From Folioceros fuciformis (lineage: Eukaryota): a DNA stretch of 64,000 nt. The notes below the pieces were generated by a model. It worked only from the letters and a program-made list of their open reading frames with translations. It did not search any database and was not told the DNA's origin. The stretch spans positions 153,434 to 217,433 of the forward strand of contig JBNGIO010006284.1 of NCBI GenBank assembly GCA_049999805.1, given 5' to 3'. Shown one piece after another: positions 22,160-57,539 of this stretch. Each line of letters starts with the position of its first letter. The first letter of the stretch is position 1. A program made the translations under genes and the position numbers.

Positions 22160-25100
22160 TCAAGACGGTTCACCCAGTCCTCCCATCGTTTTGGAGCGAA
22201 CATGATGAAACCTCGCACCGTCATCTTCACTGTCGAAATGTATTTTATCTATAACCAGGAAACCATGCACAACTCCGTCCATGTCTGTCCACCAGCTCTG
22301 ACCTGGCTGCTTCCACGCTCTGACTCTTCTCCTCCTTTCCTGCATCTCTTTTGCCTGCTCCCACATTTGGGCACTTACGTATATGTTCGCCATTAACACA
22401 TATGCTGCAGCATCACTTTTGTCCAAATTCATTGCTTCATCGAAAGCATGGCATCCTACCTCTACATTACACCACTTTCGACAAGCACCTAAGAGAGTGT
22501 GCCAAACTGCTGCATCAGGCAGTGCAGGCATTCTCCTTACCAAAGCTAGTGCCTCCTCAAGGTGGCCTGCACGACCCATAAGATCTACCATGCATGTGTA
22601 GTGCTCTGCTGTCGGAGTAACGCCATAATGGGTGCTCATGGCATCAAAATGCTCGAGCCCCTTACGCACCAGACCTGCATGACTGCATGCTTTCAGAACA
22701 CTCAGGAATGTGATGCCAGTGGGTTCTACACGATGCTCGCGCATTTTATGAAACAAGTCAGAGACCACAGCACCGTTCCCCTGATCCGTGTAGCCTGAGA
22801 TTAGCGCGTTCCAGGCTACAATGTCTTGTTCAGCCAACTTATCAAAGACCTTTTGTGCATCAACCATGCTCCCAGACTTTCCATACATGTTTATCAAACT
22901 TACAGCTACTAGCACATTGCTGTCCAGCCCTTGTTCTTCAATCTGCGCATGAATCTTTCTTCCCAGATGTAAAGCAGCTACATTTGCACATGCTTGCAGG
23001 AGGCACACAAATGTCAAAGTATCCGGTGCAACAGTGTCTTCTTCATGCATAGCCCGGTAGAGAGATAGGGCTTCGAGGTCCAATCCCTGCTGGGAGTATC
23101 CTGTTATCATGGCATTCCACGTCACCACGTCTTTCTGGGTAAGCCTGTCAAACATCTTCTGAGCATCTCCCAGGCTGCCACACTTGGCATACATATCTAC
23201 CAAACTATTGGCTACCATCATATCAGATTGAAGACCTAGTTCTCTGATTTGCGCATGAAGCTGCTTGCCCTTCTCCAAAGCTGAGATGCCTACACATGCA
23301 CATGCTTGTAGGACGGACACACAAGTCATGGAATCTGGCGCAACCCTTCCTCCTTCCATAGCTTTGTGAAGGCGAAGGGCTTCCTCGCCCATGCCCTGCT
23401 GCGAATGTCCTGCGATCATGGCATTCCACATCACGACATCTTTCTCAGAGAGCCTGTCAAATATTCTTTGCGCATCTTCAACCTTCCAGACTTTGCGTAT
23501 CCTGCTAATAGAGTGGTAGATGTAACCATATTTTTCTCATCAAGTCTGTAGAACACATGCTCAGCGTCCTCTAGGCTTCCACACTTTGCGTACATGTCGA
23601 CCAAGCTGCAACTAATAACAGCGTTAACCGTGAGTCCTAGTTCTTCAATCTGTGCATGAAGCTGTTTCCCTTTCCGCAAAGCTTGGACACCCAAACTTGC
23701 GCATGCCTGCAGAAGAGATACGTATGTTACAGGATCTGGTACAGCAATGCCCTCATCTTGCATAGCTGTGTAGAGATGAAGGGCTTCCTGACCCATGCCA
23801 CGCTGGGCGTATCCTGCTATCAAAGCTGTCCATGTGACCACATCTTTTTTATCAAGATCGTCAAATACTCTTTGCGCATCTTCCAAGCTGCCGCACTTGC
23901 TATACATGTTCACCAAACTGTTGGCTACAAACACATCAGATTGCAGGCCTCGTTCTCTAATATCCCACTGCATGTGCCTTCCCTTCTCCAAAGCAAGGGT
24001 GCCTACACTTGCACACGCCTGCAGAAGGCACACAAATGTCACAGAATCGGGTGCAACAGTGCCTACTTGTTGCATCGCTCTGTACAATAGAAGAGCTTCC
24101 TGCAGCATGCCCCGGTGGCAATACCCTGCAACCATAGCATTCCATGCCGTCACATTCTTATGGGTAAGGCCGTCAAACACACCCTGGGCATCCACTAGGC
24201 TGCCACACTTCAGGTACATCTTCACCAGACTGCAACCTACAACAACATCAATCTGAAGTCCTCGTTCTCCAATAAGTGCATGCAGCTGTCTACCTTTCTC
24301 CAAAGCAGGAGCGCCCATACTTGCACATCCCTGCAGGAGGCACAAAAAGGTCACACAATCGGGTGAAGCCATATCTTCCTCTTGCATAGCACTGTAAAGC
24401 CTGAAGGCTTCTTGCCATAAGCCCTGCTGACAATATCCTGCGATCATAGCATTCCACGACACTATATCCTTATGGCCAAGTGCGTCGAACACTCTACGAG
24501 CATCATCCAAACTGCCACACTTCGCATACATGTCCATCAAGGAATTCCAAACAAACAAATCAGGCTCGAAACCATCAACCCCACTGGCTAGCACATAAGC
24601 ATGCACCTGCTGCCCAGCTTCCAAATCCGATTCCCTTGCACACGCTTGAAGGGCTGCGACATATACATGCCCATCGGGCTTCACACTTGACCTGCCCATC
24701 TTGTACAAGTCTATCGCCTGCTCAGCCAGCCCCTGGTTCACATAAGCAGAGATTATGGAGGACAACATAAAAGCATCTGGCTTGGCAACCACAGCAAAGA
24801 CAGCCATCGCTTCGTGCAACCTACCATGAGAAGAATACATTCGAATGATGTGGTTGCACAAGGATGTGTCCAACTCGTACCCCTGCTCGACAATGAGAGC
24901 ATGAACACGGCGACCCAGAGCCAGATCCCTCTGAACCACACATTTCTTCAGGACAGTATAGAAAGCAGATGCAGTTATACTACTCCCTGTCTGCACCAGA
25001 ACTCCCAGACCCTCAACAGCCTCAGTGTCCTGCTCCTGCTTACAGAGTTGTCTCACGCTTTCATCCGATACGGCTCTTTGATACTCTGCAGATCTGTCAG

Positions 25101-25446
25101 GGTCACGGTCACGACCCGTCCGCATTTCCATAGCAGACAATTCCACATCACCCCAAGATGGCTTGCACAGGGACTCTGTATGCCAGAAGCCCCGAGAATA
25201 CACCCTGTGTTCAAATTGCCTGCTGTGCCCCCAAAGCGTATGGTCCAGAGAACACCGTCGACAAAGGAACTCATGCCGTCTACCCTCCCCAGACAGGAGG
25301 CATTCTCGTGAGTGGTATGAAGGCGGTGCAAGGCTTCCCCCACTGGAGGCAGCCTTGCTCCGTAACTTTTCCCACCTTGAAGTCAGGCCAGTGGGCCTTA
25401 TCCTCCGGGACCTGTAATCCCACCAATGCTTTCTCCAAGCATCCAT
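22160..25446 (-). pseudogene. PLS-class PPR protein (PPR-1), WW-type E+/truncated DYW, split by a 1-nt frameshift at ~23479
   Basis: ORFs 23431-25446 and 22160-23434 join into a continuous P-L-S array if one base is restored; ends AWKQPGQSWWTDMDGVVHGF. Confidence 0.85.
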
Positions 25447-25872: not shown

Positions 25873-25972
25873 NNNNNNNNNNNNNNNNNNNNNNNNNNNN
25901 NNNNNNNNNNNNNNNNNNNNNNNNNNNNNNNNNNNNNNNNNNNNNNNNNNNNNNNNNNNNNNNNNNNNNNNN
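25873..25972. other. Assembly gap (100 N)
   Basis: N run; gagtaatggat repeated on both sides. Confidence 0.99.
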
Positions 25973-26338: not shown

Positions 26339-29300
26339 TCATCCAACTCTCCAGAGGCTTTCGTCCGCAACCAAGAAGTTATGCACCAGACCATCCACGT
26401 CGGTCCACCAGCACTGTCCAGGCTGCTTCCATGCCCTGATTCCTGTTCGCCTCGTCTGCGTTTCATGTGCCCGCTCCCACATCCGGGCACCTCTGTATAT
26501 ATTCAACATCAAAACATAAGCTGCGGCGTCCATTTTGTCTACCTTCAAGGCTTCATCAAAGGCATGACATCCCAGCTCGACTTCGCCCCACTTTTGACAA
26601 GCACCTAACAGAGCGTGCCAAACGGCAGCACTAGGTTGAACAGGAATTGTCCTTAACAAATCCAGAGCTTCCTCCAATCGGCCTGCACGACCCAGGAGAT
26701 CCACCATGCATGTGTAGTGCTCTGCGGTAGGAGTGATGCCATAGTGTCTGCTCATAGCCTTGAAGTACTGTTGCCCCTCGTGCACTAGCCCCTTGTGACT
26801 GCATACTGTTAAAACACAGAGGAATGTGATGTCTGTTGGCTGTATGCCATCCCATCTCATTCTGTGGAACAAGTCAAAGACAACTTTGCTGTCTCCTTGA
26901 CAAGTGTACCCTGCTATCAGCGAATTCCAGACTACGCCGTCTCTTTCAATCAATGTGTCAAAGACCTGCTGTGCATCAACCATGCTCCCCACCTTTGAAT
27001 ACATGTTTATCAGACTAGCTGCTACAAGAACATCAGTGTGAAGCCCTTGTTGTTCAATCTCTGCGTGGAGCTGCCTTCCCACCTGCAAAGCTGCCACATT
27101 TGCACATGCCTTCAGAAGGCACACATATGTCACAGGGTCCGGTGCAATTATGCGGCCCTCTTGCATAGCCTTGTAAAGACACAGGGCTTCCTGTCCCATC
27201 CCCTGCTGGGAATATCCTGAAATCAGAGCATTCCACGTGACAACATCCTTCTGAGCAAGCCCGTCGAATATCCTGTGCGCATCTTCTAAGCTACCACATT
27301 TTGCGTACATGTAGACCAAGCTATTCGCAACAAGCACATCTGCTTGAAGTCTTCGTTCTCTAATTTGTGCATGAAGCTCCTTCCCTTTCTCCAGAGCGAG
27401 GGTACCCACACTTGCACATGCTTGCAAGAGGGAAACATATGTCACATAATCAGGTGACACAAGGTCTTCATCTTGCATAACATTGTATAAAGAAAGGGCC
27501 TCCTCACCCAATCCTTGTTGGGAATATCCTGCAATCACGGCATTCCATGTCACTACATCTTTCTCAGGAAGCTGGTCAAAAATGCTTCGGGCATCTTGCA
27601 ACTTGCCAGATTTTGCATATCCTGTTATGAGGGTGGTCCATGTTACCATGTTCTTTTGACGAAGTCCATCAAACACGGCCTGAGCATGCCCTAGGCTGCC
27701 ACACTTTGCATACATGTTTACCAGACTGCAGCCTACAACAGCATCAATATTAAGTCCTCGTTCAACAATCTGTTGATGAAGCTGTTTTCCCCTTTCCAAA
27801 GCCAGTGTACCAACACTTGCACATGCCTGCAGCATAGACACAAATGTCACGGCGTTGGGTGCAGAGATGCTCTCCTCTTGCATGGCACTGTAGATTTGAA
27901 GGGCTTTCGGACCCATGCCTTGCTGGGAATATCCTGCTATCAATGCTGTCCAAGTCACAACATCCTTGTATGCGAGTGCATCGAACACGCTTTGAGCGTC
28001 TTCCAAGCAACCGCACTTTGCGTACATGTTTACCAGGCCACTCCCAACACGAACATGAACCTCATGCCCTTGTTCTCTAATCTCTGCATGAAGCTGTTTC
28101 CCCTTCTCCAAAGCCGGTGTTCCCACACTTGCACAAGCCTGTAACAGAGACACAAACGTCACAGCATTGGGTGCGGCAACACCTTCCTCTTGCATAGCAC
28201 TGTAAAGCTGTAGGGCTTCCTGACCCATGCCCTGGTGGGAATAGCCTGCCAAAAGAGCAGTCCAAGTCACCACATCTTTCTTACCGAGTCCTTCAAACAT
28301 TCTTCGGGCATCTTCCAAGCTGCCGCACTTTGCATACATGTTCACCAAGCTGTTCGCCACAGAGACATCAGTTTCAAGCGCTCGTTCTCTAGTTTGAGCA
28401 TGAAGCTGCTTCCCACGCTCCAATGCCGGGTTACCCACAAGTGCACAGGCCTGCAGGAGAGAAACAAATGTCACAGCATTGGGTGTAGCAACGCCTTCCT
28501 CTTGCATGGCACCGTAAAGGTCAAGGGCCTCTTCACCCATGCCCTGCTGCGAATATCCTGCAATCAAAGCGGTCCATGTCACCACATCTCTCCGCCGAAG
28601 TCCATCAAACACTCGTCGAGCATCTTTCAAGCTACCACACTTGGCGTACATGTCCACCAAGCAGTTAGAAACAATCAGATGAGGCTCAGTACCTCTGGCC
28701 AATATATCAGCATGCACCTGGTGCCCGGTTTCCAAGTCTCCCATCTTTGCACAAGCCTGAAGGGCTGCCGCAAACACATGCCCATCTGGCTTCACATTTG
28801 AAGCTCGCATGTCATGGTACAGCTGTACGGCCTGCTGAGCTTGTCCAAGGGCAACATGTGCAGAGATTACGGAAGACCACATGAAGGCATCTGGCACAGC
28901 AACCACGGTAAAGACTTCCATCGCCTCCTGCAACTTGCCCTGAGAAGCATACATCCGGAGGATGTGGTTGCACATGAAAGTATCCGATTCATACCCAACT
29001 CTCACAGTGAGAGCATGCACACACCGACCCACAATCAGGTCCTTGTAAACAGCACACTTTTTAATCATAGAATAGAACAGCGTTCGAGAAACACGACAGT
29101 CTGTCTGCACCAGAACTCCCAGAGCCTCAACAGCCTCAGAGAGATGCCCCTGCTCACATAACTGGCTCAAGCCCTCTGACATTACTATCCTTTCATATCC
29201 TACAGGCCTGCGAAGGTACCCGTCATCTGGCATGCTCCAGTTTGAACCATGAGCAGGACACAAACAGCCTCTTGGAAGAGGCCCTGCCCCTCTTGATGAC

Positions 29301-29428
29301 AACGATGTGCACCCATGATTTCGTGAAGTATTCAGTGAACCCATCCAGCCAAGACTGAGCCTAAAATGCAACCCTAGAGCCAGAGCACCGGAGCTGAATG
29401 TTGGGCAGACGATAGTTGGCACGTCCAT
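26339..29428 (-). CDS. PLS-class PPR protein (PPR-2), E1-E2 plus WW-type box, DYW truncated
   Basis: Repeated SLVNMYAKCGSLEDA / VVTWTALIAGYSQQG / VTFVSLLQACA motifs; ends AWKQPGQCWWTDVDGLVHNF. Confidence 0.93.
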   Translation of the reverse strand: MDVPTIVCPTFSSGALALGLHFRLSLGWMGSLNTSRNHGCTSLSSRGAGPLPRGCLCPAHGSNWSMPDDGYLRRPVGYERIVMSEGLSQLCEQGHLSEAVEALGVLVQTDCRVSRTLFYSMIKKCAVYKDLIVGRCVHALTVRVGYESDTFMCNHILRMYASQGKLQEAMEVFTVVAVPDAFMWSSVISAHVALGQAQQAVQLYHDMRASNVKPDGHVFAAALQACAKMGDLETGHQVHADILARGTEPHLIVSNCLVDMYAKCGSLKDARRVFDGLRRRDVVTWTALIAGYSQQGMGEEALDLYGAMQEEGVATPNAVTFVSLLQACALVGNPALERGKQLHAQTRERALETDVSVANSLVNMYAKCGSLEDARRMFEGLGKKDVVTWTALLAGYSHQGMGQEALQLYSAMQEEGVAAPNAVTFVSLLQACASVGTPALEKGKQLHAEIREQGHEVHVRVGSGLVNMYAKCGCLEDAQSVFDALAYKDVVTWTALIAGYSQQGMGPKALQIYSAMQEESISAPNAVTFVSMLQACASVGTLALERGKQLHQQIVERGLNIDAVVGCSLVNMYAKCGSLGHAQAVFDGLRQKNMVTWTTLITGYAKSGKLQDARSIFDQLPEKDVVTWNAVIAGYSQQGLGEEALSLYNVMQDEDLVSPDYVTYVSLLQACASVGTLALEKGKELHAQIRERRLQADVLVANSLVYMYAKCGSLEDAHRIFDGLAQKDVVTWNALISGYSQQGMGQEALCLYKAMQEGRIIAPDPVTYVCLLKACANVAALQVGRQLHAEIEQQGLHTDVLVAASLINMYSKVGSMVDAQQVFDTLIERDGVVWNSLIAGYTCQGDSKVVFDLFHRMRWDGIQPTDITFLCVLTVCSHKGLVHEGQQYFKAMSRHYGITPTAEHYTCMVDLLGRAGRLEEALDLLRTIPVQPSAAVWHALLGACQKWGEVELGCHAFDEALKVDKMDAAAYVLMLNIYRGARMWERAHETQTRRTGIRAWKQPGQCWWTDVDGLVHNFLVADESLWRVG

Positions 29429-30731: not shown

Positions 30732-33700
30732 TCACCAGCATGCCCATTCCCTCGCTTTTAAGTCACAGTCGAGAGCCGGAGATGAGGGCTCGGGAGCCTC
30801 TCTCGTCATTTCAGAGACGAGCTGTTTCAGTCTGGCATATATGTGTTCAATCTCAGGATGCCTCGTGTCCCCAACCACAAAACTGTGAACCAGTCCTGCA
30901 TTGTCTGTCCACCAGCTTCGGCCTGGCTGCTTCCATGCTCTGATTCCTATTCTCCTCGCCTGCATCTCCTCTGCCTGCTCCCACATGAAGGCATTTGTGC
31001 ATATGTTTGACATCAAGACATACGCTGCAGCATCTTTCTCATCTAGCTTCACTGTTTCATCAAAAGCATGGCATGCAACCTCAACGTCATCCCACTTTTG
31101 ACAAGCACCCAACAGAGTGCGCCAAACAGCAGTATTGGGCAGCACAGGCATCGTCCTTATCAAAGAAAGTGCCTCGTGGATTCGGCCTGCCCGCCCCAGG
31201 AGATCCACCATGCATGTATAGTGCTCTACGGTGGGAGTGATGCCAAAGTATCTGCTCATAGCCTTGAAGTATTCTTGCCCCCTGGTCACCAGACCTGCAT
31301 GGCTGCACGCCGTCAGTACACTGAGGAATGTGATATCGGCTGGCTGTATGCCATCTTCACTCATTTTGTGAAACAAGTCCAAGACTCCTGCAGTGTCCCC
31401 TTGACGGGCGTAACCTGCAATCAGTGCATTCCAGGCCACATCATCTCTTTCGGGCATTGCATCAAATACTTGCTGCGCATCAACCATGCTCCCAGACTTC
31501 CCGTACATGTTTATCAAACTGCTGGCTACGAGCACATCAAATTGAAGGCCATGTTCTTCGATGTGTGCATGCAGCTGCCTTCCCAGATGCAAAGCCGCTA
31601 CATCTGCACATGCCTGTAGCAGGCACACAAATGTCACAGAATTGGGTGCCACAATGCCTTCGTCTTGCATAGCACCATAAAGACGAAGGGCTTCCAGTGC
31701 CATGCCCTGCTGCGAATAGCCGTTTATTATGGCAGTCCACGACACCACGTTCTTTTCATGAAGTCCGTCAAATACGCCCTGGGCATACTCTAGGCTGCCA
31801 CACTTTGCATACATGTCTACCAAACTGCTGGCTACAACTACATCAGATTGAAGCCCCTGTTCTCTGATTTCTGCGTGAAGTTGCTTTCCCTTCTCCCAAG
31901 CTGGGTTGCCAACATTAGCACATGCCTGCAGCAGAGACACAAATGTCACAGAATCAGGTGCCGTGATACCTTCTTTTTTCATAGCCAAGTAGAGATGAAG
32001 GGCTTCCTGACCCATGCCCTGCTGGGAATATCCTGCTATCATGGCATTCCACGTCACAACATTCTTTTGACCCAATCCATCAAACACTTCCTGGGCATTT
32101 TCTAGGCTGCCACACTTTGCGTACATGTTCACTAAACTACTGGCTACAAACACATCGGGTTCAAGTCCTCGTTCTCTAATTTGCGAATGAAGTTGTCTAC
32201 CCTTCTCTAAAGCCAAAGTGCCTACACTTGCACATGCCTGCAGGAGGCACACAAATGTTACTGAATCTGGTACAGCCATGCCTTCTTGTTGCATGCTGTT
32301 ATATAGATGAAGGGCTTCCTGGCCCATCCCCTGCCGAGAATAACCTGCTATCAAAGCAGTCCAGGTCACAACACTTTTTTGACCAAGCCCACCAAACACG
32401 ATCTGAGCATCTTCCAAACAGCCACACTTTGCATACATATTTACAAGGCTGAAACCTAGAATCTCACCGACGTCAAGTCCTTGTTCTCTAATCTGTTCAT
32501 GAAGTTGCCTCCCCTTTTCCCAAGCCAGGGGACCAATACTAGCACATGCCTGCAGGAGAAACACAAACGTCAGAGAATCAGGCATGGCACCGCCTTGTTC
32601 TTGCATTGCACTGTAGAGGCCGAGGGCTTCGTGAGCCATTCCCTGCTGGGAATATCCTGCTATAAGAGCTGTCCAAGTCACCACATCTTTTTGACCAAGT
32701 ACACGAAAAAGTCGTTCAGCATCTTCCAAGCTGCCACACTTCACATACATATTTACCAAACTGTTGGCTACAAATGTGTTTGATTGTAATTGTTCCCTAA
32801 TTTGTGCGTGAAGCTGCCTCCCCCTTTCCAAAGCTGGAGGGCCCATACTGGCGCATACCTGCAGCAAGCAAGAAAATGTCACAGAATCAGGTGCAACAAT
32901 GCCCTCTTCTTCCATAGCCCTGTAAATGCGAAGGGCTTCTGAGCTACTTCCGCGGTGAATATACCCTGCTATGAGAGCATTCCATGTGACCACATTTTTC
33001 TGCCCGAGACAGTCAAAGACACGTTGAGCATCTTCCGGGCTGCCACACTTTGCATACATGTTGACCAGGCTGCAACCTACAATAGCATCGACCTTAAACC
33101 TTAGCTCTCCAATACGTGCATGAAGCTGCTTCCCATTTTCTAGAGCGACGGGGCCCAAACTTGCGCATGCCTGCAAGAGAGACACCAGTGTCACGGCATC
33201 CGGTTCAACAATGCATCCTTCTTGCATAGCACGGTAGAGAGAAAGAGCTTCCTGACCCCTGCCCTGCTGTGCATATCCTGCTATTAGAGCAGTCCACGTC
33301 ACCACATCCTTGTTGCACAGTCCATCGAAGACTGTCTGGGCCTCTTCCAAGCGGCCACATTTTGCATACATGTTTACCAAACTGTTGGCCACACACACAT
33401 CCGCTTCATGACTACGTTGGATGATCTGTGCATGAAGCTGCTTCCCCTTCTCCAAACCCGGGACGCCCACGCTTGCACAAGCCTGGAGAAGGCACAAAAA
33501 AGTCACAGTATCAGGAGAAACCGCGCCTTCTTCTTGCATAGCACCGTAGAGACAAAGGGCTTCTTTGGCCATGCTCTGCTGGGAGTACCCGCCTATCATG
33601 GCATTCCAAGTTGACACATTTTTTCGACCAAGCCCATCAAACACACTCTTAGCGTCCTCCAGGCTCCCACACTTCGCATACATGTTTACCAGGTTGCATC

Positions 33701-34454
33701 CTACAACAACATCGACCATAACTCCTCCTTCACCCATCTGTGCCGCTCCCCACACGTCAGCATGCACGTGCTGCCCAGCTGTCAAGTCCCTAGCCCTTGC
33801 ACAAGCTTGAAGAGCTGCTGCAAATACATGACCATCTGGCTTCACACCGGACTCGCGCATGCGGTGATACAACCGTATGGCCTGCTCAGCCTCTCCATGG
33901 TTGACATGTGAAGAAATTATGGATGACCACATGAAAGCATCTGGCTCCTCAACCCAGGTGAACACATCCATCGCTTCCTGCAACATGGCATGAGAAGCAT
34001 ACAATCGCATGATATGATTGCACAAGAACGTGTCCGAGCCGTACCCCCGCTCCACCATGAGAGCATGAACACGGCGACCCAGAACCAAGTCCCTCTGCAC
34101 CACACACTTCTTGATGACTGCGTAAAATACAGATCGAGCTATGAGACAATCCGTCTGCACCAGCACTCCCAGAGCCTCAACAGCCTCACTGATCTGCGCT
34201 TGCTGGGATAGCCGCGTCACGGTTTCAGCAGTCACTCCTTGGACACACCCTGCAAGCGTACGCTCATCCGGGGAGTCCGACGCAGGGTGCATACCCGGTC
34301 CGCACCTTGGGGTGAGACAACCACCAGCTTTGTTCCTGGAGAATGTGGCATTCCACCCATATTTCGCTCCCGGGAACGCAAGAGCTGTAGCTCCAGGAGG
34401 CCCTCTGCGTGTGTGATGTGCGACGCGGCAGGCAGCAATCACTCGCACAAGCAT
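30732..34454 (-). CDS. PLS-class PPR protein (PPR-3), WW-type E+, DYW truncated
   Basis: Long P-L-S array; AWKQPGRSWWTDNAGLVHSFVVGDTRHPEIEHIYARLKQL; stops just before the HxE position. Confidence 0.94.
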   Translation of the reverse strand: MLVRVIAACRVAHHTRRGPPGATALAFPGAKYGWNATFSRNKAGGCLTPRCGPGMHPASDSPDERTLAGCVQGVTAETVTRLSQQAQISEAVEALGVLVQTDCLIARSVFYAVIKKCVVQRDLVLGRRVHALMVERGYGSDTFLCNHIMRLYASHAMLQEAMDVFTWVEEPDAFMWSSIISSHVNHGEAEQAIRLYHRMRESGVKPDGHVFAAALQACARARDLTAGQHVHADVWGAAQMGEGGVMVDVVVGCNLVNMYAKCGSLEDAKSVFDGLGRKNVSTWNAMIGGYSQQSMAKEALCLYGAMQEEGAVSPDTVTFLCLLQACASVGVPGLEKGKQLHAQIIQRSHEADVCVANSLVNMYAKCGRLEEAQTVFDGLCNKDVVTWTALIAGYAQQGRGQEALSLYRAMQEGCIVEPDAVTLVSLLQACASLGPVALENGKQLHARIGELRFKVDAIVGCSLVNMYAKCGSPEDAQRVFDCLGQKNVVTWNALIAGYIHRGSSSEALRIYRAMEEEGIVAPDSVTFSCLLQVCASMGPPALERGRQLHAQIREQLQSNTFVANSLVNMYVKCGSLEDAERLFRVLGQKDVVTWTALIAGYSQQGMAHEALGLYSAMQEQGGAMPDSLTFVFLLQACASIGPLAWEKGRQLHEQIREQGLDVGEILGFSLVNMYAKCGCLEDAQIVFGGLGQKSVVTWTALIAGYSRQGMGQEALHLYNSMQQEGMAVPDSVTFVCLLQACASVGTLALEKGRQLHSQIRERGLEPDVFVASSLVNMYAKCGSLENAQEVFDGLGQKNVVTWNAMIAGYSQQGMGQEALHLYLAMKKEGITAPDSVTFVSLLQACANVGNPAWEKGKQLHAEIREQGLQSDVVVASSLVDMYAKCGSLEYAQGVFDGLHEKNVVSWTAIINGYSQQGMALEALRLYGAMQDEGIVAPNSVTFVCLLQACADVAALHLGRQLHAHIEEHGLQFDVLVASSLINMYGKSGSMVDAQQVFDAMPERDDVAWNALIAGYARQGDTAGVLDLFHKMSEDGIQPADITFLSVLTACSHAGLVTRGQEYFKAMSRYFGITPTVEHYTCMVDLLGRAGRIHEALSLIRTMPVLPNTAVWRTLLGACQKWDDVEVACHAFDETVKLDEKDAAAYVLMSNICTNAFMWEQAEEMQARRIGIRAWKQPGRSWWTDNAGLVHSFVVGDTRHPEIEHIYARLKQLVSEMTREAPEPSSPALDCDLKAREWACW

Positions 34455-39716: not shown

Positions 39717-39816
39717 NNNNNNNNNNNNNNNNNNNNNNNNNNNNNNNNNNNNNNNNNNNNNNNNNNNNNNNNNNNNNNNNNNNNNNNNNNNNNNNNNNNN
39801 NNNNNNNNNNNNNNNN
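39717..39816. other. Assembly gap (100 N)
   Basis: N run. Confidence 0.99.
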
Positions 39817-43957: not shown

Positions 43958-46900
43958 TCACTGGTTATCCCCACATGAACAGAAACCATCCACGAAATGG
44001 TGGACGGAATGCGCATCTCTAACTATGATCTCCCTCTTCTCAATTCTTGACATAATCTTGGTGCCGCTGTGGCAGTCATCACACATCCGCAGGTTCTTGG
44101 TGACCAGCAACGTTGTGCCGTCTGGTGTGTTCAAGAGCCCATACGCTAATGCCAGTTTCTCAGCATGGCCACACAGGGCATCCTCCTTCTCGCTGTCAGA
44201 CAACGGCTTCAGCACCAAGTGTGCGTGGGGTACATGGCCTCCTTCCTGCTTCAATCGTAAGTTCACATTCGAAAGCTTTGAGGAGATGTCTTCCCTTTCT
44301 TCCCCCACCGTGAAGCCGTGGGCCTTTCTGTTCACCTCAATCCACGCCTTCGCTGGCTTCTTCCGAGCACCTGCTGCCTTTCTCAGCTTCTCTACCGCGT
44401 CCACATCCTTCCATCTGCCGGCACTTCCGTAAATGCTTGCCAAAAGCACGTACGCTGCTGCATTCTGAGGGTCCATTTCCACAAGAGAGTCGAAACAGCG
44501 TCTTGCGCGCTCCATGTCCCCATAGCTTTTGCAGGCAGTCAGCAGAGATGTCCAGCCGGCAGCAGCATTCTGGAAAGGCATTGTTCTCAACAGCTTCTCT
44601 GCCTCGTCTAGATGCCCGGATCTGCTCAGGAGATTAGCCATGCAGTTGTAGTGATGCACGGAGGGGGTGATGTTGTAGTCCTCCTCCATCGTCTTGAAGA
44701 GGTTCCGACCCTCCTTCACCAGGCCCTCGTGACTGCATGCTGCAAGAAGGCAGATGAAAGTGGCGTCGTTAGGCTGCACACCCTGCTGCTGCATCGCTCG
44801 GAAGCACTGTAACGCATTTCGACCATCTTTATGTTGCCCGTATCCATTCAGCAGAGCAGTCCATGTCACCACGTTCCTGCTCTGCAAGCTCTCGAAAACT
44901 CCTTGGGCTTCCTTCAGGCTGCCACACTTTGCATACATGTCCACCAGGCTGCTCCCGACAACCGCATCGCCTTCCAGTCCCCTTTCTTGAATTCGTGCGT
45001 GTATTTGCTTTCCCTGGTGTAACGCTCCGATGCTGGCACATGCCTTCAAGAGGCACACGTAGGTAACAAGGTCTGCTGGCGTGAGGCCCTCCTCTTGCAT
45101 GCTTGTGTACAGATCGAGGGCTTCTTGACCAAGTCCTTGTTGGGAGTAGCCTGCAATCATGGTAGTCCATGTGACCACATCCTTGAACTGTAAAGCCTTG
45201 AAGACTGCGTGAGCATCTTCCAGGCTTCCGCATTTTGCATACATGTCCACCAGACAGTTCCCAAGCACCGCATCGATGTCGATGCCTCTTTCTTGAATCT
45301 GCAAATGAATGGCCTGGCCCGCTCGCAATGCTCCGATGCTGGCACAAGCTTTCAGGAGGCACACAAAGGTGACACGATCCGCTGGAGTCCATCCCTCCTG
45401 CTGCATGCTAGCGTAAAGCTTGAGGGCCTCTTCACCAAGCCCATGCTGTGCATAGCCTGTGATCATGGTGGTCCAGGTCACCACGTCTTTTAATGGCAGC
45501 TTGTCAAACACTCTACGAGCATCCTCGAGGCTCCCACATTTTGCATACATGTCCACTAGGCTGTTTGCAACCACCATATTTGCTTCCAGCCCTCGTTTCT
45601 TAAGGTGCCAATGGAGATCTGTACCTTCCCGCAAAGCTCCCATGCTAGCACAGGCTTTGAGTAGGCAGACAAATGTGACATGATCAGCAGGAGTGATTCC
45701 CTCTTGTTGCATACTTTCGTACAGAGCCAAGGCTTCTGAAGCAAGCCCCTGCTGCGCATATCCTGTTATCATGGCAGTCCATGTCACCACATTTTTCGTA
45801 GGCAACCTGTCAAAGACGCTGCGGGCATTCACTAAGCTGCCACATTTGGCATACATGTCTACCAGACTGCTGCCTACGACCACATCAGTTTCCAGGCCCT
45901 TTTCTCGAATCTCGGAATGAAGTTGCTTTCCATGATTTAGAGCTCCAACACCAGCAGAAGCTTTCAGGAGGCACACCAAGGTAATCTTGTTGGGAGAGGA
46001 GATGCCCTCGAGCTGCATACTTGCATAAAGATTGAGGGCCTCCTGACCAAGCCCGTGCTGGGCGTATGCTGCAAGCATGGCATTCCAGGTAACAACATCT
46101 TTCGTGTGCAGTCCTTCAAACACACGATAAGCATCCTTTAAGCTCCCACATTTCGCATACATGTCCACCAAGCTGTTTCCAACAAACAGATCAGATTCTA
46201 ATCCTCTGGCCTGAATTTCGGAATGAAGTTCCTTCCCTTGCCGTAAACCCCCAATGCTAGAACAAGCCTTCAGTAATGACACATACGTGACAGGATCAGC
46301 CAGGATGGTGCCCTCCTTTTGCATACCAGAATATAGGGAAAGGGCCTCTTGCCCGAGCCCATGCTGAGCGTACCCTGTGAGCATCGTATTCCACATCACC
46401 ACATTTCTGGTAGGCCAGCTGTCAAACACTCTACGAGCATCCTTCACGCTTCCACATTTTGCATACATGTCAATGAGACTGCTGCCCACATACACGTTCA
46501 GATCTTCAACACCCTCTAAGACATCTGCATGAATTTGCTTTCCAGATGCCAAATCGGCTGCAGTCGCACATGATTTAAGCGCTGCCACAAATACATGATT
46601 GCTTGGCTTCACGGGGGACTGCCTCATCAGCTGATAGAGCCGAATCGCTTGAATTGGCTGATTGTGTTCCGCGTGTGCTGAGATGATGGAAAACCACATT
46701 GACGGGCTTGGAGCATCCAATCTTGTGAACACCTCTGCCGCCTCCTGCAAATTCCCATGAGAAGCATACATGCGGATGATATGACTTGCCAAGAATTTGT
46801 TCGATTGGTAACCATTTTTAAGAGTAAGGACATGGATAAGCCTGCCAACATCCCCATCTTTCTGGGCAGTGCACCTTTTAAGAACACGAGAAAACAGAGA

Positions 46901-51233: not shown

Positions 51234-51442
51234 GACATCCAGAGACGTTTCTCTTTCAGTTCACATACCCAGATGTTGGAAGTCAAATTAGATCTCGACG
51301 GAACTCCACAAATCTCTCCCTCGCGGTGTCCAGGGTACCTATGTGCTTTCGAGCCTCCGGCTTCGCATACAGAAAGGAGAACCCTTCCTTCAGTTATGCC
51401 CTGCCATAACAAGTCTGACTGAGGGACATCCCCCGATGTCCT

Positions 51443-54400
51443 TCATGTTGGCCAAAACCTGCTCTTGCCTTGCATAGATGCTTCCGCTCTCAAGAGCTTG
51501 ACATCACCCGCCAAAAATCTGTGCACCACGCCATCTGAGTCAGTCCATGAGCTCTGGCCTGGCTCCTTCCATGCACCGATCTCTGTTCTCCTAACCTGCA
51601 TCTCCTGAGCTTGCTCCGACATCTGGGCACTGGAGTATATGTTAGACATCAAGACATGCGCTGCAGCATCTCTTTTGTCTAGTTTCACTGCTTCATCGAA
51701 AGCTTGTCGTCCCACCTCCACATCACTCCACTTCTGACATGCACCCAATAGAGTGCGCCAAACGGCAGCATCAGGAACAACTGGCATTGACCTTGCTAGA
51801 GATAGTGCCTCGTCCATTTGCCCCGCCCGACCCAGCAGAGCCACCATGGACGTATAATGTGCCGCTGTGGGAGTGATGCCATACTGTCCGCTCATGGCTT
51901 CAAAGTACTCCCGTGCCTTTTTCACTAGACCAGCATGACTGCACACTGTCAGTACATTAAGGAACGTGATGCTGGTTGGCTCGACCCCATCCTGTCTCAT
52001 TCTGTGGAATAAGTCCAAGACCACTTCACTGTCTCCTTGACGGGTGTAGCCTGCTATCAGTGAATTCCATGCAAGGGCGTCCCTTTCGGGCAATGCCTCA
52101 AATACCTGCTGGGCGTCAACCATGCTCCCAGACTTTGAATACATGTTTATTAAACTGACGGCAATCAGTCCATCACCTTGTAGCCCCTGTTCTACAATCC
52201 GTGCATGAAGTTGCCTTCCTATACGCAGACATGCCAGATCTGCACATGCCTGCAGAAGGCAGACAAAAGTCACAGAATCAGGATGAACAATTCCTTCTTG
52301 CTGCATATCAAAGTAAAGTCGCAGTGTTTCCTGCCCCATGCCCTGCAGGGAATATGCCGACATTAAGGCATTCCACGTCACAACATCTTTCTTGGGTAGC
52401 CCGTCAAACATACTCTGGGCATCCTCCAGGCTTCCACACTTTGCATACATGTGTATCAAACTGTTGGTTACAGAGGTATCAGCTTGGAGTCCTCGTTCTC
52501 TAATTTGTGAATATAGCTCTTGGCCCTTCCTCAAAGCCGGGTTGCCAACACTTGCACATGCCTGAAGGAGGGACACGTATGTTACAGAATTGGGTGCAAC
52601 CACGCCTCCTTCTTGCATATCCCTGTGCAGACGAAGGGCTTCCTGGCCCATGCCATGGTGAGAATATCCTGCAATCATAGTATTCCAACTCACCACGTCT
52701 TTCTGAGGATGGCCATCAAAAGCACTTTGAGCTTCCTCCAGGCTGCCACACTTTGAATACATGTCGATCAGGCTATTGGCTACAAACACATCAACTTGAA
52801 ACCCTCCTTCTCTAATGTGTGCATGCAGCTGCCTCCCTTCCTCCAGAGCCAAAGTGCCCATGATTGCACATGCCTGCAAGATGCACACGAATGTTGTGGA
52901 ATTGGGTACAATAGTGCCTCCGTATCGCATAGCCTCGTAAAGATATAAGGATTCCTTCAACATGCCCTGCTGCGCATATCCTGCAATCATGGTGTTCCAG
53001 GTCACAGCATCTTTCTCAGAAAGCCCATTAAATAATCTTTGAGCGTTTTCCAAGCTGCCGCACATCGCATATCCTGCGATCAGAGTAGTCCACAAAACAG
53101 TATTTTTTTCACTGAGTGCATCAAACACAACCTGAGCGTCCTCTAGGCTGCCACATTTTGCATACATGTTTACCAAGCTGCAGCCTACAACAACATCAAT
53201 CGTGAGTCCATGTTCTACAATCTGTTCATGAAGCTGTTTCCCAATCTTCAACGCTGGGGCACCCACACTTGCGCATGCATGCAATAGAGACCCAAATGTC
53301 ACGGCGTCGGGTATAGCTACCCCTTCTTCTTGCATAGCACTAAAAAGACGAAGGGCTTCCTGTCCCATGTCCAGCTGGGAATATCCTGCTATCAGAGATG
53401 TCCACGTGATAACATCTTTATCACCAATCCCGTCGAATACTCGTTGAGCTTCGTCCAAGCTGCCACACTTCGCATACATGTTCACCAAACTGTTGGATAC
53501 AAACACATTTTCTTGAAGTCCGTGCTCTCTGATTTGCTTGTGAAGCTGCTTTCCCTTTTCCAGTGCGTGTGTGCCAATACTTGCGCATGCCTGCAAGAGG
53601 CACACAAATGTCCCAGAATCAGGTGCAACAATGCTTTCTACTTCCATAGCCCTGTGTAGATCAAGGGCTACTTGTCCCATACCCTGCTGAGAGTACCCTG
53701 CTATCATGGCATTCCACGTTACCACAGTTTTCTTCCCAAGTCCATCAAACACTCGCTGAGCATCTTCGAGGCTACCACACTTAGCGTACATGTTTACCAG
53801 ACTGCCACCTAACACCACATCAACTTTAAGCCCTTGTTCTCCAACCAGAGTACTGGCCAACACATCAGCATGCACCTGCTGCCCAGTTTTCAAGTCTGCC
53901 CTCCTTGCACAAGCCTGAAGTGCGGCTACATACACGTGTCCATCAGGCTCCACCCCAGACCTGAGCATCTCCTGATACAGTAGTATGGCAGGTTTGGCTT
54001 GTCCGTGGTTCACATAGGCAGAGATCATGGAAGACCACATGAAGGCATCTGGCTTGGCAACCAGAGAAAAAACATCCTTTGCTTCTTGCAACCTGCCATA
54101 AGAGGCATACACGCGCAGGATATGGTTGCACAGGAACGTGTCCGACGTATACCCCCTCATCACGCTGAGAGCATGGACACGCCGACCTAGCCAGAGATCC
54201 CTCTTTACCACACAGGTTTTGAGGACAGCATAGAACATAGACTGAGGGACACGACATTCCGTCTGCACCAGGACTCCCAGAGCCTCAACAGCCTCAGAAA
54301 CCAGCCCCTGCTGACACAGCCGACTCAGAATTTTCTCCCCTCTCAAAGATTCTCTTAAACGGGCTGCATTTGCAACGTTGCCGTTGCCTGATGTGTGGTA

Positions 54401-54538
54401 TCTTGAAGTCAGCCACGCAGCTCTCTTCCTTTGGTCTTTGAGTTCCGACCCATTGTTCTTCGTTGGATCCAGAAGACTTGTTGCCAGGAGCTGCCCTCGC
54501 CTTCTGTGTGGATGAAATGCAACGCGGCAGACACCCAT
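51443..54538 (-). CDS. PLS-class PPR protein (PPR-7), WW-clade box, DYW truncated by frameshift
   Basis: P-L-S array; AWKEPGQSSWTDSDGVVHRF; E+ sequence continues in a shifted frame. Confidence 0.93.
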   Translation of the reverse strand: MGVCRVAFHPHRRRGQLLATSLLDPTKNNGSELKDQRKRAAWLTSRYHTSGNGNVANAARLRESLRGEKILSRLCQQGLVSEAVEALGVLVQTECRVPQSMFYAVLKTCVVKRDLWLGRRVHALSVMRGYTSDTFLCNHILRVYASYGRLQEAKDVFSLVAKPDAFMWSSMISAYVNHGQAKPAILLYQEMLRSGVEPDGHVYVAALQACARRADLKTGQQVHADVLASTLVGEQGLKVDVVLGGSLVNMYAKCGSLEDAQRVFDGLGKKTVVTWNAMIAGYSQQGMGQVALDLHRAMEVESIVAPDSGTFVCLLQACASIGTHALEKGKQLHKQIREHGLQENVFVSNSLVNMYAKCGSLDEAQRVFDGIGDKDVITWTSLIAGYSQLDMGQEALRLFSAMQEEGVAIPDAVTFGSLLHACASVGAPALKIGKQLHEQIVEHGLTIDVVVGCSLVNMYAKCGSLEDAQVVFDALSEKNTVLWTTLIAGYAMCGSLENAQRLFNGLSEKDAVTWNTMIAGYAQQGMLKESLYLYEAMRYGGTIVPNSTTFVCILQACAIMGTLALEEGRQLHAHIREGGFQVDVFVANSLIDMYSKCGSLEEAQSAFDGHPQKDVVSWNTMIAGYSHHGMGQEALRLHRDMQEGGVVAPNSVTYVSLLQACASVGNPALRKGQELYSQIRERGLQADTSVTNSLIHMYAKCGSLEDAQSMFDGLPKKDVVTWNALMSAYSLQGMGQETLRLYFDMQQEGIVHPDSVTFVCLLQACADLACLRIGRQLHARIVEQGLQGDGLIAVSLINMYSKSGSMVDAQQVFEALPERDALAWNSLIAGYTRQGDSEVVLDLFHRMRQDGVEPTSITFLNVLTVCSHAGLVKKAREYFEAMSGQYGITPTAAHYTSMVALLGRAGQMDEALSLARSMPVVPDAAVWRTLLGACQKWSDVEVGRQAFDEAVKLDKRDAAAHVLMSNIYSSAQMSEQAQEMQVRRTEIGAWKEPGQSSWTDSDGVVHRFLAGDVKLLRAEASMQGKSRFWPT

Positions 54539-55085
54539 GGTTCGCAGCCAAAGGATAGGCTGAACATTGGAGCCCAGAACCCAGCTCCAGTGCGCCAGCT
54601 GGGCTAGTTGCGTTTGAGGTAGTATCCATGTCCAGTAGCGCTAGGAAAGGGTCCCTGATTCCGCAATCTGAAACCCGAATTCTTCAGACACTCCGCAACG
54701 ACAATGTCTCCAGCCGGAATTCCCATACATCAATGTCACCCATCTATATCCTCAGGAAAACGTTAGTCATGAGTTCCGATTTCCTTCTCCAAGAACCAAT
54801 AGAGGTTTCAGTAGGGAGTCATATCGGCCTTCGATCAGGAAAGCCAATCTCAACAGTGATACGCCGCCCAAGGAGAACAGGAGTTCATAAATGAGGGACG
54901 CCATGCAGTTCGAACCCATCTTTCATGTTCCATGGAAGTCTTCAAGCGTGAGCCTTCCGACGACAGAATTTTAGATTGTAGTACGATGCATGGTTGGTAC
55001 ATGAGCGGTTCCATGAGTCCTTTAGCTAAACTGTTTGTACAAGCTGGCTTGTGGTGGTTGGCATGAGGATGTTTAAGATTTGCAG

Positions 55086-57539
55086 ATGGGTGCTGCTCCT
55101 CCTACATACAACCACGGGAGGTTACCGGATGAGGCTCCCCGGTCACCAGCTGCTCACCTTGTCAGAGCTGCAGGTGCAGGATACAGAACGGGAGCTCTGA
55201 CAGCGGAAACCGTGACAAAATTGTGTCAGCAGGGGCAGGTTGCCGAGGCTGTCGAGGCTCTGGGAGTCCTGGTACAAATAGAGTGTTGTTCTTCCTCATC
55301 TATCTTTTATACAGTGCTGAAAGCTTGTGTGGTTGAAGGGGATGTGGTGCTGGGTCGTCGTATCCACTCTCTCAGCGTTAAGCAGGGGTATGAGTCGGAC
55401 ACGTTCCTGAGCAACCACATCCTGCGAATGTATGCCTCTCTTGGCAGGTTGGGAGAGGCAAAAGATGTGTTTTTCATGTTTGACAAACCGGATGCGTTCA
55501 TGTGGTCTTCTATTATTCTTGCCTATGTTAAGCAGGGACAAACTAAAAAAGCCTTACAACTGTATCATCGGATGCAGAGGTCAAGTGTGCAGCCAGATCC
55601 TCATGTGTTTGTAGCCGCTCTTCAGGCTTGTGCGAAAGGAGCAGACTTGAAAACTGGGCAGGAGGTTCATGCCGATCTGTTGGCCAGCGGGCTTGGGCCT
55701 CATTTGTTCGTGTGGAACTGTTTGGTGGACATGTATGCAAAGTGTGGCAACGTGGACGAAGCTCGAAAAGTGTTTGACCAACTTTGTGAAAAAGATGTGG
55801 TGACATGGAATGCCATGATATCAGGGTACTCGCAGCAGGGTATGGGGGAGGAAGCTCTTCGCCTCTACAGTGCTATGCAGGAGGATGGCACGGCCGAACC
55901 TGATTCTGTGACGTATATTAGCCTCCTGCAGGCATGTGCAGGAATGGGCACACTGGCTTTGGAGGAAGGGAAGGACCTTCATGCACAAATAAGAGAACGA
56001 GGACATCATGCTGACTTGTTCGTAGCCAACAGTTTGGTTAACATGTATGCAAAATGTGGGAGCTTGGAAGATGCTCAAATAGTGTTTGACGGGCTTCATC
56101 AGAAGGATGTAGTAACATGGACAGCTCTCATAGTAGGATACTCCCAGAAAGGCATGGGCGTTGAAGCCCTTCAACTTCACAGTGCTATGCAAGAAGAGGG
56201 CGTTGCTGTGCCCAATGCTGTGACATTTTCGTCTCTGCTGCAGGCATGTGCAATCGTTGGTGCCTCTGCTTTGGAGAAGGGGAAACAGCTCCATGCAGAG
56301 ATCAGAGAGCGAGGGTTCAAGGTTGATGTTGTTGTAGGTAGCAGCCTGGTGAACATGTACGCGAAGTGCGGCAGTCTAGAGGATGCTAAGGGTGTCTTCG
56401 ATGGACTTGGTCACAAAAATGTGGTCACGTGGACTGGTCTGATAGCAGGATATGCAAACAGTGGCAGCTTGAAAGACGCTCAAAGACTGTTTGACGAGTT
56501 GCCTCAGAAAGATGTGGTGACATGGAATGCCATGATCGCAGGATATTGCCAGCAGGGACTTGGTCAAAACGCCCTTCAGCTTTACAGGGCTATGCAAGAA
56601 GAAGGAACTGTTGCACCAAATGCTGTGACATTTGTATGCCTCCTGCAGGCATGTGCAAATGTGGCAGCTTTGCATCTGGGACGCGACCTCCATGCACAGA
56701 TTGAAGAACAAGGACTTGAAGCCGATGTCCTTGTGGCCGTCAGTTTGATAAACATGTATGCAAAGTCAGGGAGCATGGTTGATGCTCAGCAAGTGTTTGA
56801 GGCGATGCCCACAAGAAACTGTGTCTCCTGGAATGCACTGATTGCAGGTTACTCCCGTCAAGGAGACAGTGACGCGGTTTTCAACTTGTTGCTCAGGATG
56901 AGGGCGGAAGGCGTCCAACCAGACAGCGTCACATTCCTCAGCATTCTAACAGTATGCAGTCATGCGGGTCTACTGAGTAAGGGCCAAGAGTACTTTGAGG
57001 TCATGATCAGCCAACATGGCATCTCTCCCACACCTGAGCACTACACATGCATTGTTGATCTCCTGGGTCGTGCAGGCCAACTGGAGGAGGCACTAGCGTT
57101 GGTGAAGGCAATGCCTGTACTGCCTGATGCCGCAGTTTGGCACACGCTATTGGCCGCTTGCCGAAAGTGGAGGAACGTGGACGTAGGACATCATGTTTTC
57201 CAAGAAGCTGTGAAACTGGACGAAAAAGATGCTGCAGCCTACATCCTAATGTCGGCCATATACACCACTGCCCAGATGTGGGAGCAGGCACAGGAAATTC
57301 AAGCAATGAGGAGAGAAATCAAGGCTTGGAAGCAGCCAGGCGAAAGCTGCTGGACAGACATGAACGGATGGGTGCATGCTTTTGTCGTTGGGGATGAAAA
57401 CCATCCCGAGAGTGAAGGCATACATGCAATGCTGAAACAGCTCTTCCCAGAAATGAAGGAACAAGGCTATGTGCCACATCTCCAGGAATTCCACCCGGAT
57501 ATATGTGCACCATGTCCAGAAGTGTTCTTGACCTTATGA
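55086..57539 (+). CDS. PLS-class PPR protein (PPR-8), WW-clade E+, DYW truncated
   Basis: P-L-S array; AWKQPGESCWTDMNGWVHAFVVGDENHPESEGIHAMLKQLFPEMKEQGYVP then stop before HxE. Confidence 0.94.
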   Translation: MGAAPPTYNHGRLPDEAPRSPAAHLVRAAGAGYRTGALTAETVTKLCQQGQVAEAVEALGVLVQIECCSSSSIFYTVLKACVVEGDVVLGRRIHSLSVKQGYESDTFLSNHILRMYASLGRLGEAKDVFFMFDKPDAFMWSSIILAYVKQGQTKKALQLYHRMQRSSVQPDPHVFVAALQACAKGADLKTGQEVHADLLASGLGPHLFVWNCLVDMYAKCGNVDEARKVFDQLCEKDVVTWNAMISGYSQQGMGEEALRLYSAMQEDGTAEPDSVTYISLLQACAGMGTLALEEGKDLHAQIRERGHHADLFVANSLVNMYAKCGSLEDAQIVFDGLHQKDVVTWTALIVGYSQKGMGVEALQLHSAMQEEGVAVPNAVTFSSLLQACAIVGASALEKGKQLHAEIRERGFKVDVVVGSSLVNMYAKCGSLEDAKGVFDGLGHKNVVTWTGLIAGYANSGSLKDAQRLFDELPQKDVVTWNAMIAGYCQQGLGQNALQLYRAMQEEGTVAPNAVTFVCLLQACANVAALHLGRDLHAQIEEQGLEADVLVAVSLINMYAKSGSMVDAQQVFEAMPTRNCVSWNALIAGYSRQGDSDAVFNLLLRMRAEGVQPDSVTFLSILTVCSHAGLLSKGQEYFEVMISQHGISPTPEHYTCIVDLLGRAGQLEEALALVKAMPVLPDAAVWHTLLAACRKWRNVDVGHHVFQEAVKLDEKDAAAYILMSAIYTTAQMWEQAQEIQAMRREIKAWKQPGESCWTDMNGWVHAFVVGDENHPESEGIHAMLKQLFPEMKEQGYVPHLQEFHPDICAPCPEVFLTL

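Follow-up and report, generated by a model that had tools for sequence, protein, structure and literature searches.

In Arabidopsis and maize, pentatricopeptide repeat (PPR) proteins that stop after the E2 motif, after the box that follows it or after the E+ helix recruit a deaminase protein, namely DYW1, DYW2 or MEF8/PCW1 (PMC11897456). As described in the same source, E+ proteins pair with DYW2 and E proteins with MEF8/PCW1, and CRR4 contributes its E2 motif and PG box to the substrate pocket of DYW1, which they complete. The site-specific partners in these systems (CRR4–DYW1, SLO2/CLB19–DYW2–NUWA, and PPR-E–MEF8/PCW1) have a PLS repeat array, E1, E2, and a PG-type box, in some cases followed by the beginning of the gating domain, and have neither HxE nor CxxC. 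The MORF proteins, helpers in the angiosperm complexes, are found in seed plants only, and the E+ subgroup of PLS PPR proteins is enriched in hornworts according to the counts, and only the counts, given in PMC13386178 (Mol Biol Evol 2026). For the reverse reaction, the accounts in PMC9478123 and PMC11845758 have U-to-C activity demonstrated only for designer KP proteins, in which Lys88 is essential (PMC11845758); DYW:KP genes are described as confined to hornworts, lycophytes or ferns (PMC13386178, PMC11897456). Here, we describe a cluster of eight PLS-class PPR genes in a 64-kb stretch of DNA from Folioceros fuciformis (contig JBNGIO010006284.1; this whole stretch is referred to below as the window). 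Seven of these genes encode proteins without a DYW deaminase domain, and the eighth encodes a complete DYW:KP protein.

Six of the seven DYW-less genes carry a box of a type denoted WW, which we take to be the name of a DYW-domain subtype. These six paralogues are old and selectively maintained, and we propose, by analogy with the angiosperm systems, that they encode site readers that would be served by a DYW deaminase acting in trans. We give this model as a whole a probability of roughly 55%. The class of DYW-less PLS proteins in early-diverging, heavily editing land plants is already in print, and the cluster is a well-documented member of it rather than a new mechanism. Its DYW-less genes belong to the same architecture class as the hornwort-enriched E+ subgroup of PMC13386178, a source whose relevant passages do not describe the WW box, the tandem clusters or the selection acting on them. 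The passages of PMC13386178 and PMC11897456 that bear on this class likewise contain no tests of DYW-less PPR proteins in such plants. Whether reader and enzyme are separate subunits there is a question for the evolution of the editosome and matters for how modular tools for C-to-U and U-to-C editing are designed. The cluster offers a compact test set: within 35 kb lie five intact readers that differ in their arrays, a broken copy, and a complete KP enzyme.

Architecture of the gene cluster

Nine open reading frames (ORFs) of at least 400 aa lie between 22160 and 57539, and all nine are matched by Pfam PPR families (PPR, PPR_1, PPR_2, and PPR_3). They correspond to eight genes, g1–g8, within 35.4 kb (strands −, −, −, +, −, +, −, and +), because the ORFs at 22160–23431 and 23431–25446 (−) are the two halves of a single frameshifted gene. 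An earlier note on this DNA, made from the letters alone, had counted eight PLS genes in ~35 kb, and this count stands. These PLS-class PPR genes form a tandem array of old origin within the nuclear genome of a land plant; the window as a whole is plant nuclear DNA with a GC content of ~50% and contains three N runs of exactly 100.

A deaminase domain is found in only one of these genes. The Pfam family PF14432 (DYW_deaminase) matches one of the nine ORFs, that of g5, and H-x-E-[KR]-x-A has a single match across the six frames, at 44150–44167 in the same gene. C-x-x-C-H occurs twice, in g5 (44069–44083) and at 33985–33999, where it is a chance match, since it lies outside the reading frame of g3. 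The statement of the earlier note that only the KP gene has HxE and CxxC is thus borne out by both the Pfam search and the motif scan. No second DYW core was detected in the 64-kb window by tblastn with the g5 C-terminus, by the six-frame motif scan or by a profile of the DYW tail, and Pfam, motif scan, profile, and structure alignment agree that none of the six WW genes has a complete DYW deaminase domain.

The profile covered 114 positions after the box, was built from ten complete WW-type proteins (with a WWTD or WWID box), and was searched against all six frames, in which stops were read as X. It scored 129 bits in g5 (positions 3–112) and 9.8 bits in the E+ part of g8 (positions 1–34). 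The only further hits were obtained at 9215–9280 (−), beside an UNC-93-like ORF (−0.0 bits, positions 40–61), in the tail of g3 (−3.5 bits, positions 1–26), in the tail of g7 past its stop (−3.7 bits, positions 5–50), and at 46521–46574 (−) inside g5 (−4.6 bits, positions 92–110). The catalytic part, corresponding to profile positions 50–114, scored positively nowhere in the window except in g5. Candidate in-frame DYW remnants in tblastn alignments past the stops of g3, g7, and g6 were dropped, as the profile gives at most 0 bits beyond position 35. When aligned to known structures, the C-terminus of g8 matches the synthetic PPR-DYW protein 9kfx over residues 386–526 of 612, with its end at GYVPHLQ, and g5 matches residues 412–610 of the same protein (2.5e-66); 7o4e and 7w86 were matched too.

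The DYW-less genes retain the PLS array, the E1/E2 motifs, and the box. The PLS triplets are regular, P(35–38)-L(35–41)-S(31), with 19–28 motifs per gene in a parse based on our own anchor patterns rather than on PPRfinder. The number of motifs differs between the WW paralogues (~19 in g8, 23 in g2 and g7, and 28 in g3 and g4), and the residue pairs at position 5 and the last position of the P and S motifs diverge between them. Such differences in array length and in position-5/last pairs are what one would predict for copies that each read an RNA of their own. The E motif (PF20431) is present in eight of the nine ORFs, the exception being the upstream half of g1, with E-values of 4e-6 to 2e-14 in the downstream half of g1 and in g2, g3, g4, g6, g7, and g8. 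The E+ motif (PF20430) was matched only in g3 (23.6 bits) and g8 (20.6 bits), in both cases slightly below the curated cut-off of 24. The box itself is found in all seven DYW-less genes, five of which (g1, g2, g4, g6, and g7) stop 19–40 residues past it; g2, for example, has neither the E+ helix nor the DYW core. At the other end of the proteins, g3, g4, and g7 resemble one another as homologues over their first 40 residues, which by residue count only are basic (6–9 R+K versus 0–4 D+E), a composition that would fit an organellar presequence.

The WK(Q/E)PG..(W)WTD box was found in six genes, with g6 being of the PG type and g5 of the KP type, as the earlier note had it. PGxSWWTD is matched in full in g1–g4 and has one W replaced in g7 (SSWTD) and g8 (SCWTD). 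The string SWWTD does not occur in the literature searched. The second feature reported as shared by these genes, the N-terminal block EAVEALGVLVQ, needs qualification. In a six-frame regular-expression scan, EAVE[AG]LG occurs exactly six times, in g1 (as EAVEGLG), g2, g3, g4, g7, and g8, so the block is indeed present in the six WW genes. It is not exclusive to them, since g5 encodes a homologous ETVEALDRLV upstream of its first ATG; the block is the first repeat of the superfamily.

Relatives, selection, and transcription

The proteins of the window are themselves absent from the collections searched. The closest relatives of g8, P0058 and P0084, come from run assemblies, are ~50% identical to it, and have the same N-terminal block and the WW box but no DYW domain; the best named matches are lycophyte proteins with at most 44% identity. 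Across 391 gathered proteins, the box PG.SWWT[DE] occurs in 11, seven of which are complete with HxE...CxxCH and four of which are truncated. The truncated ones (P0058, P0084, P0193, and P0241) end 42–77 residues after the box. The complete ones (P0216, P0274, P0275, P0276, P0279, P0286, and P0288, the first four being from Logan assemblies and P0279, P0286, and P0288 belonging to Selaginella moellendorffii according to their NCBI names) have HSE, CxDCH, and a D[YF]W-like end, and continue for 126–128 residues after the box, whereas the WW genes of the window continue for 19–59 and lack these motifs. P0275 and P0276 resemble the window genes in the N-terminal block (AVEALERLVQ and AVDALDRLIQ, respectively) and in the style of the repeats. 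The box consensus WK.PG..WWTD..G..H.F is identical in ten truncated and seven complete proteins. P0193, P0216, and P0241 were contributed by a profile search with the six C-terminal segments against 1.84 billion representatives, which returned 41724 matches ranked by repeat number and not by box. A region-restricted word search with the g8 C-terminus gave 12 matches from 276 candidates, none of them of the WW type.

A quick maximum-likelihood tree was calculated from 272 C-terminal columns and 47 rows, with P0277, P0278, P0283, P0284, and P0285 left out. The six WW genes of the window group together (SH-aLRT 100), and their sister group (84) consists of eight WW rows, among which truncated and complete proteins are intermixed. 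Both groups lie within a larger clade of 20 rows (96), made up of WW-box rows and three Selaginella rows with a WWID box, so that the complete WW-box DYW factors share not only the box but also a clade with the WW genes of the window; neither g5 nor g6 belongs to it. The 17 rows entered in the tree under KP have KKPACSWIE (16 rows) or KKPAQSWIQ (P0133) and are not typical DYW:KP proteins. Because truncated and complete proteins intermix, loss of the catalytic part is recurrent in the WW lineage, and the tree places the loss in the window WW genes as independent of the angiosperm DYW losses. For the six window genes, a single catalytic loss is probable, and their differing stops would then be later events. 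P0084 contains a decayed stretch, GGSERLVGANALINK, in place of the CGHSEKLAIAxALLxT of complete proteins; judging from this stretch, it appears to have lost the catalytic His before it was shortened, and it illustrates stepwise decay of the domain in the WW lineage.

Selection was assessed from Nei–Gojobori distances for two codon-aligned segments, one of ~200 codons around the N-terminal block and one of ~270 C-terminal codons, which starts at the last P1-L1-S1 triplet and ends shortly after the box. In the N-terminal segment, all 15 WW pairs give ratios of nonsynonymous to synonymous divergence (dN/dS) of 0.18–0.37 at dS values of 0.66–1.23. In the C-terminal segment, ten of the 15 pairs give dN/dS of 0.15–0.27 at dS values of 0.77–1.40, and the five that involve g4 have reached saturation in dS. 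As a group, the WW paralogues are therefore old and have been under purifying selection over most of their separate history, and the neutral evolution that the earlier note had named as a refuting outcome is not what the pairwise dN/dS of 0.15–0.37 indicates. The same note had described the ORFs as long and intact, which is correct for g2, g3, g4, g7, and g8 (817–1240 aa) but not for g1. This gene has one base fewer than its paralogues at ~23470–23487 (−) (GYAKSGRL / EDAQRIF), which shifts the frame. As both of its halves give dN/dS versus the paralogues as low as that of the intact genes, the frameshift must be of recent date unless it is an error of the assembly. For the most part, the seven DYW-less genes are genuine and maintained, not junk, and we hold it to be very probable that they are functional.

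Transcription was examined using a public run, X1, which contains 69% of the sampled words of 48000–57900. Its contigs were compared with the genome over 39900–59800, that is, the g5–g8 region and not g1–g4, and the records listed are the best 8 of 1318 pieces and 15 of 35 joints, so that a minor spliced form may escape. The RNA label of X1 is itself only a guess, but the run does contain spliced RNA, because 12 of the 15 joints listed are GT..AG introns (with lengths of 81–233 nt among the listed joints), all of them in two flanking non-PPR genes. Introns as short as these, along with the close packing of genes, are in keeping with a hornwort. Joints internal to PPR genes (TG..TC, GA..TC, and AG..TC, with sides of 20–25) were taken as repeat artefacts. 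Among the listed records, the contigs show no base differences or indels relative to the genome. One contig of 2373 nt matches 49674–52046 with 0 differences and comprises the 3′ half of g6 with its stop, the spacer, and the stop and 3′ part of g7. Since it crosses both stops unspliced, g6 and g7 are transcribed in their truncated reading. A hidden full DYW exon joined on by splicing, which the earlier note had named as a refutation, was thus found neither in the window sequence nor in this contig. Exact X1 contigs cover both ends of g5. For g8 there is summed bin depth only (14.7 over 57164–57827), and this coverage of its unique 3′ end suggests that it is transcribed too. Bins of zero or low depth (e.g. 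40564–41227) carry no evidential weight.

Proposed role of the WW proteins and alternatives

We propose that the WW paralogues descend from DYW editing factors of the WW sublineage after loss of the catalytic deaminase part. They retain a presequence-like leader, a long (P1-L1-S1)n-P2-L2-S2 array, E1, and E2, with what appears to be the E+ helix in g3 and g8 only. The proteins would be imported into organelles, where each would bind distinct RNA sites and, without a zinc site of its own, would present the target nucleotide to a DYW deaminase acting in trans. The direction would most likely be C-to-U, which we take as the default because complete WW domains occur in Selaginella, where editing is described as exclusively C-to-U, with no U-to-C (PMC4915041). 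The C-termini have parallels in the angiosperm systems of PMC11897456: g2, g4, and g7 stop just past the box, like CRR4 in its ‘E and partially E+’ state, and g3 and g8 appear to keep the E+ helix, like the clients of DYW2. The boxes differ, in that angiosperm PPR-E/E+ proteins have PGxSWIE and the window genes the WW variant PGxSWWTD, which is one residue longer. That the WW genes represent an independent, non-angiosperm invention of a split editosome seems unlikely to us; if it were true, the same reader could in principle work with either a C-to-U or a U-to-C module, as the organism has DYW:KP enzymes. In the boldest form of this idea, which we consider highly improbable, the module would come from the KP gene of the array.

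Several observations weigh against this proposal. The deaminase-in-trans step is drawn purely by analogy with the angiosperm systems. Past the box, the six paralogues have no conserved sequence and stop 19, 20, 31, 40, 56, and 59 residues on, so that any docking surface in four of the WW genes must consist of E2 and the box alone. Where the E+ helix is kept, the comparison of g3 with g8 gives a dN of 0.35 and a dS of 0.61 over 23 codons, which is too short for a statement about constraint. In addition, g1 is broken by its 1-nt frameshift, and the stop of g4 (39697–39699) lies 17 nt before a 100-N gap and is preceded by ten codons unrelated to the paralogues, which makes the 3′ end of g4 provisional. 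Finally, the X1 contigs give no strand, ends or level, g1–g4 lie outside the region compared, and g8 is supported by bin depth without a listed exact contig.

A trans-acting deaminase is not the only way to account for maintained DYW-less proteins. They could be organellar RNA binders that serve some purpose other than editing, for instance by stabilising RNA, defining its ends, helping in splicing or translation, or occupying or masking a site, and have no deaminase partner at all. Purifying selection and transcription fit such a role equally well, none of the present data tie the WW proteins to editing, and four of the six WW genes are without the E+ helix, which is described as strictly kept in angiosperm E+ proteins (PMC11897456). 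We nevertheless regard this role as somewhat unlikely, since E1 and E2 are kept in all six WW genes and the box, which belongs to the deaminase fold, keeps its invariant residues in truncated and complete members alike. This equally constrained box in the truncated proteins is the one sequence feature that favours editing over a non-editing role. A bleaker interpretation, in which most of the seven genes are still expressed but decaying into pseudogenes and the pairwise constraint predates the loss of the deaminase, would explain the frameshift in g1, the six different stop positions with unrelated tails in four genes, the faint and non-significant DYW-like traces beyond the stops of g3, g7, and g6, and the branch of g4, which is the longest (0.40 versus 0.13–0.25 for the others). 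It is made improbable by five WW ORFs of 817–1240 aa that have stayed free of stops despite dS values of ~0.7–1.4, and by dN/dS of 0.15–0.37 in every computable pair, g1 included, when long drift would push the ratio toward 0.6; moreover, independent truncated relatives in other assemblies share the architecture. As for the truncations being artefacts of assembly or ORF reading, with the real genes running on into a DYW exon, the position of the g4 stop next to the gap, its unrelated last codons, and the absence of g1–g4 from the read comparison leave some room for it. This is nonetheless very improbable, given that an exact RNA contig crosses the stops of g6 and g7 without a joint, that the listed records show no differences from the genome in 39900–59800, that no frame of the 64-kb window has a DYW core besides that of g5, that the gene after g8 is metallophosphoesterase-like and not a DYW exon, and that truncated relatives occur in independent assemblies.

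If the WW proteins are readers served in trans, as we favour, the neighbouring g5 may be considered as a donor. It has ~22 PLS motifs, E1/E2, and a complete domain of 133 aa with its own KP box, K1, P2, H65, E67, K88, C93, C96, H97, and the end DNQ, matched by PF14432 at 7e-35. It shares the KP box, the length of the domain, HAE, CDDCH, and Lys88 with the DYW:KP proteins regarded as candidate U-to-C factors (PMC11845758, PMC9478123), and ends in DNQ instead of the DRH/GRP of hornwort KP variants. Because it has a full array and its own box, g5 is built as a stand-alone enzyme, and its sequence makes it a convincing candidate for a self-sufficient U-to-C factor of the DYW:KP type. The frame of g5 is open upstream to 47026 and encodes homologous first repeats (ETVEALDRLV...), with no ATG before 46771, and the first in-frame ATG thus sits inside the first repeats. 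The N-terminal 162 aa are 47–54% identical to WW proteins and 45–53% identical to other KP proteins. Toward the C-terminus g5 is closest to KP proteins, with 55% identity to P0002 in the C-terminal region and 78% in the domain.

The earlier note had ventured that this gene lends its DYW:KP domain to its neighbours, so that the WW readers would direct U-to-C editing, and this part of it is not supported. The genes are adjacent, X1 contigs cover g5 and g6/g7 alike, the domain looks active by its residues (H65, E67, K88, C93, and C96), and the N-terminal part is about equally close to WW and KP proteins. Other observations speak against the idea. With a full array and a KP box, g5 is unlike DYW1, which has no PPR motifs and no PG box, unlike DYW2, with its degenerate gating N-terminus, and unlike MEF8/PCW1, with few PPR motifs (PMC11897456), and it therefore differs in architecture from all of these donors. 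Its C-terminal region falls outside the WW clade, and complete WW domains, being part of a lineage that includes Selaginella DYW proteins, occur in a plant described as without U-to-C editing (PMC4915041). Adjacency, in turn, is expected by descent in a tandem family and counts for little. We therefore consider g5 a highly improbable donor; the positions of g5 and g6 reflect the clustering of PLS genes and not a demonstrated partnership.

The remaining gene, g6, is of the PG type and stands apart from the others; its DYW domain was lost in an independent event. In our parse, four of its L motifs have an acidic insertion (e.g. SSMAEEEEGILLDGQCFKVHSLRRGK) and reach 51 aa, compared with the usual 35–37 aa. 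A frame encoding a homologous first PPR motif extends upstream of its first ATG (~48264–48362, +) and has no start codon. The 5′ ends of both g5 and g6 may include an upstream exon; one contig lies only partly on 47502–48179. The genes g6 and g7 are convergent, with stop codons 209 bp apart (51233–51443), and their 3′ untranslated regions probably overlap in antisense, as one contig spans both ends.

Feature coordinates and neighbouring genes

Coordinates of the PPR genes, the DYW:KP domain, and two assembly gaps in the window.
Feature	Position	Strand	Details
g1, WW-type PLS PPR, frameshifted, two ORFs	22160..25446	−	EAVEGLG; box KQPGQSWWTD at 22283–22312; 40 residues after box
Assembly gap, 100 N	25873..25972	.	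367 nt downstream of g2
g2, WW-type PLS PPR, 1029 aa, ~23 motifs	26339..29428	−	box KQPGQCWWTD at 26399–26428; 19 residues after box
g3, WW-type PLS PPR, 1240 aa, ~28 motifs	30732..34454	−	box KQPGRSWWTD at 30903–30932; 56 residues after box; E+ motif (PF20430)
g4, WW-type PLS PPR, 1176 aa, ~28 motifs	36169..39699	+	box KQPGQSWWTD at 39607–39636; 20 residues after box
Assembly gap, 100 N	39717..39816	.	directly downstream of g4
g5, PLS-E1-E2-DYW:KP, 937-aa ORF from first ATG	43958..46771	−	box KKPAKAWIE
DYW:KP domain of g5, 133 aa	43961..44359	−	KPAKAWIE, H65-A-E67, K88, C93-D-D-C96-H97, end DNQ
g6, PG-type PLS-E PPR, 956 aa	48363..51233	+	box KTPGHTWIE at 51108–51134; 32 residues after box
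g7, WW-type PLS PPR, 1031 aa, ~23 motifs	51443..54538	−	box KEPGQSSWTD at 51539–51568; 31 residues after box
g8, WW-type PLS PPR, 817 aa, ~19 motifs	55086..57539	+	box KQPGESCWTD at 57330–57359; E+ up to GYVPHLQ; 59 residues after box

Past the gap that follows g4, the stretch 39922–39978 has a weak resemblance to a PG box (SWLRVGNSRH versus SWIEVDNQLH, with an E-value of 0.1 in a small database), which may be due to chance or may be a remnant of another copy.

The left flank of the cluster contains ordinary plant genes of other kinds, namely an F-box gene (876–1565, −), a bestrophin-like gene (5268–5873, +), a PLAC8 gene (7320–8000, −), an UNC-93-like gene (9513–10991, −), which an atlas look-up assigned to no rank below Streptophyta, and the C-terminus of a family-B DNA polymerase (20678–21421, +). 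Long ORFs of low complexity at 14454–18249 (+) precede the polymerase piece and may share its gene; no direct repeats were found in 12500–20500. Between g4 and g5 lies the start of a small spliced gene (41567–44078, +) with three GT..AG introns and an open frame of ~164 codons (41728–42727), whose ORF pieces gave no match in a Pfam search and whose long 3′ part shares ~120 nt with the 3′ end of g5 on the opposite strand. On the right, a metallophosphoesterase-like multi-exon gene (57828–59800+, +) starts ~400 bp after g8; it has nine short GT..AG introns, and the motifs DPQ, GDYFNGG, GNHD, and SGHDH appear in successive exons.

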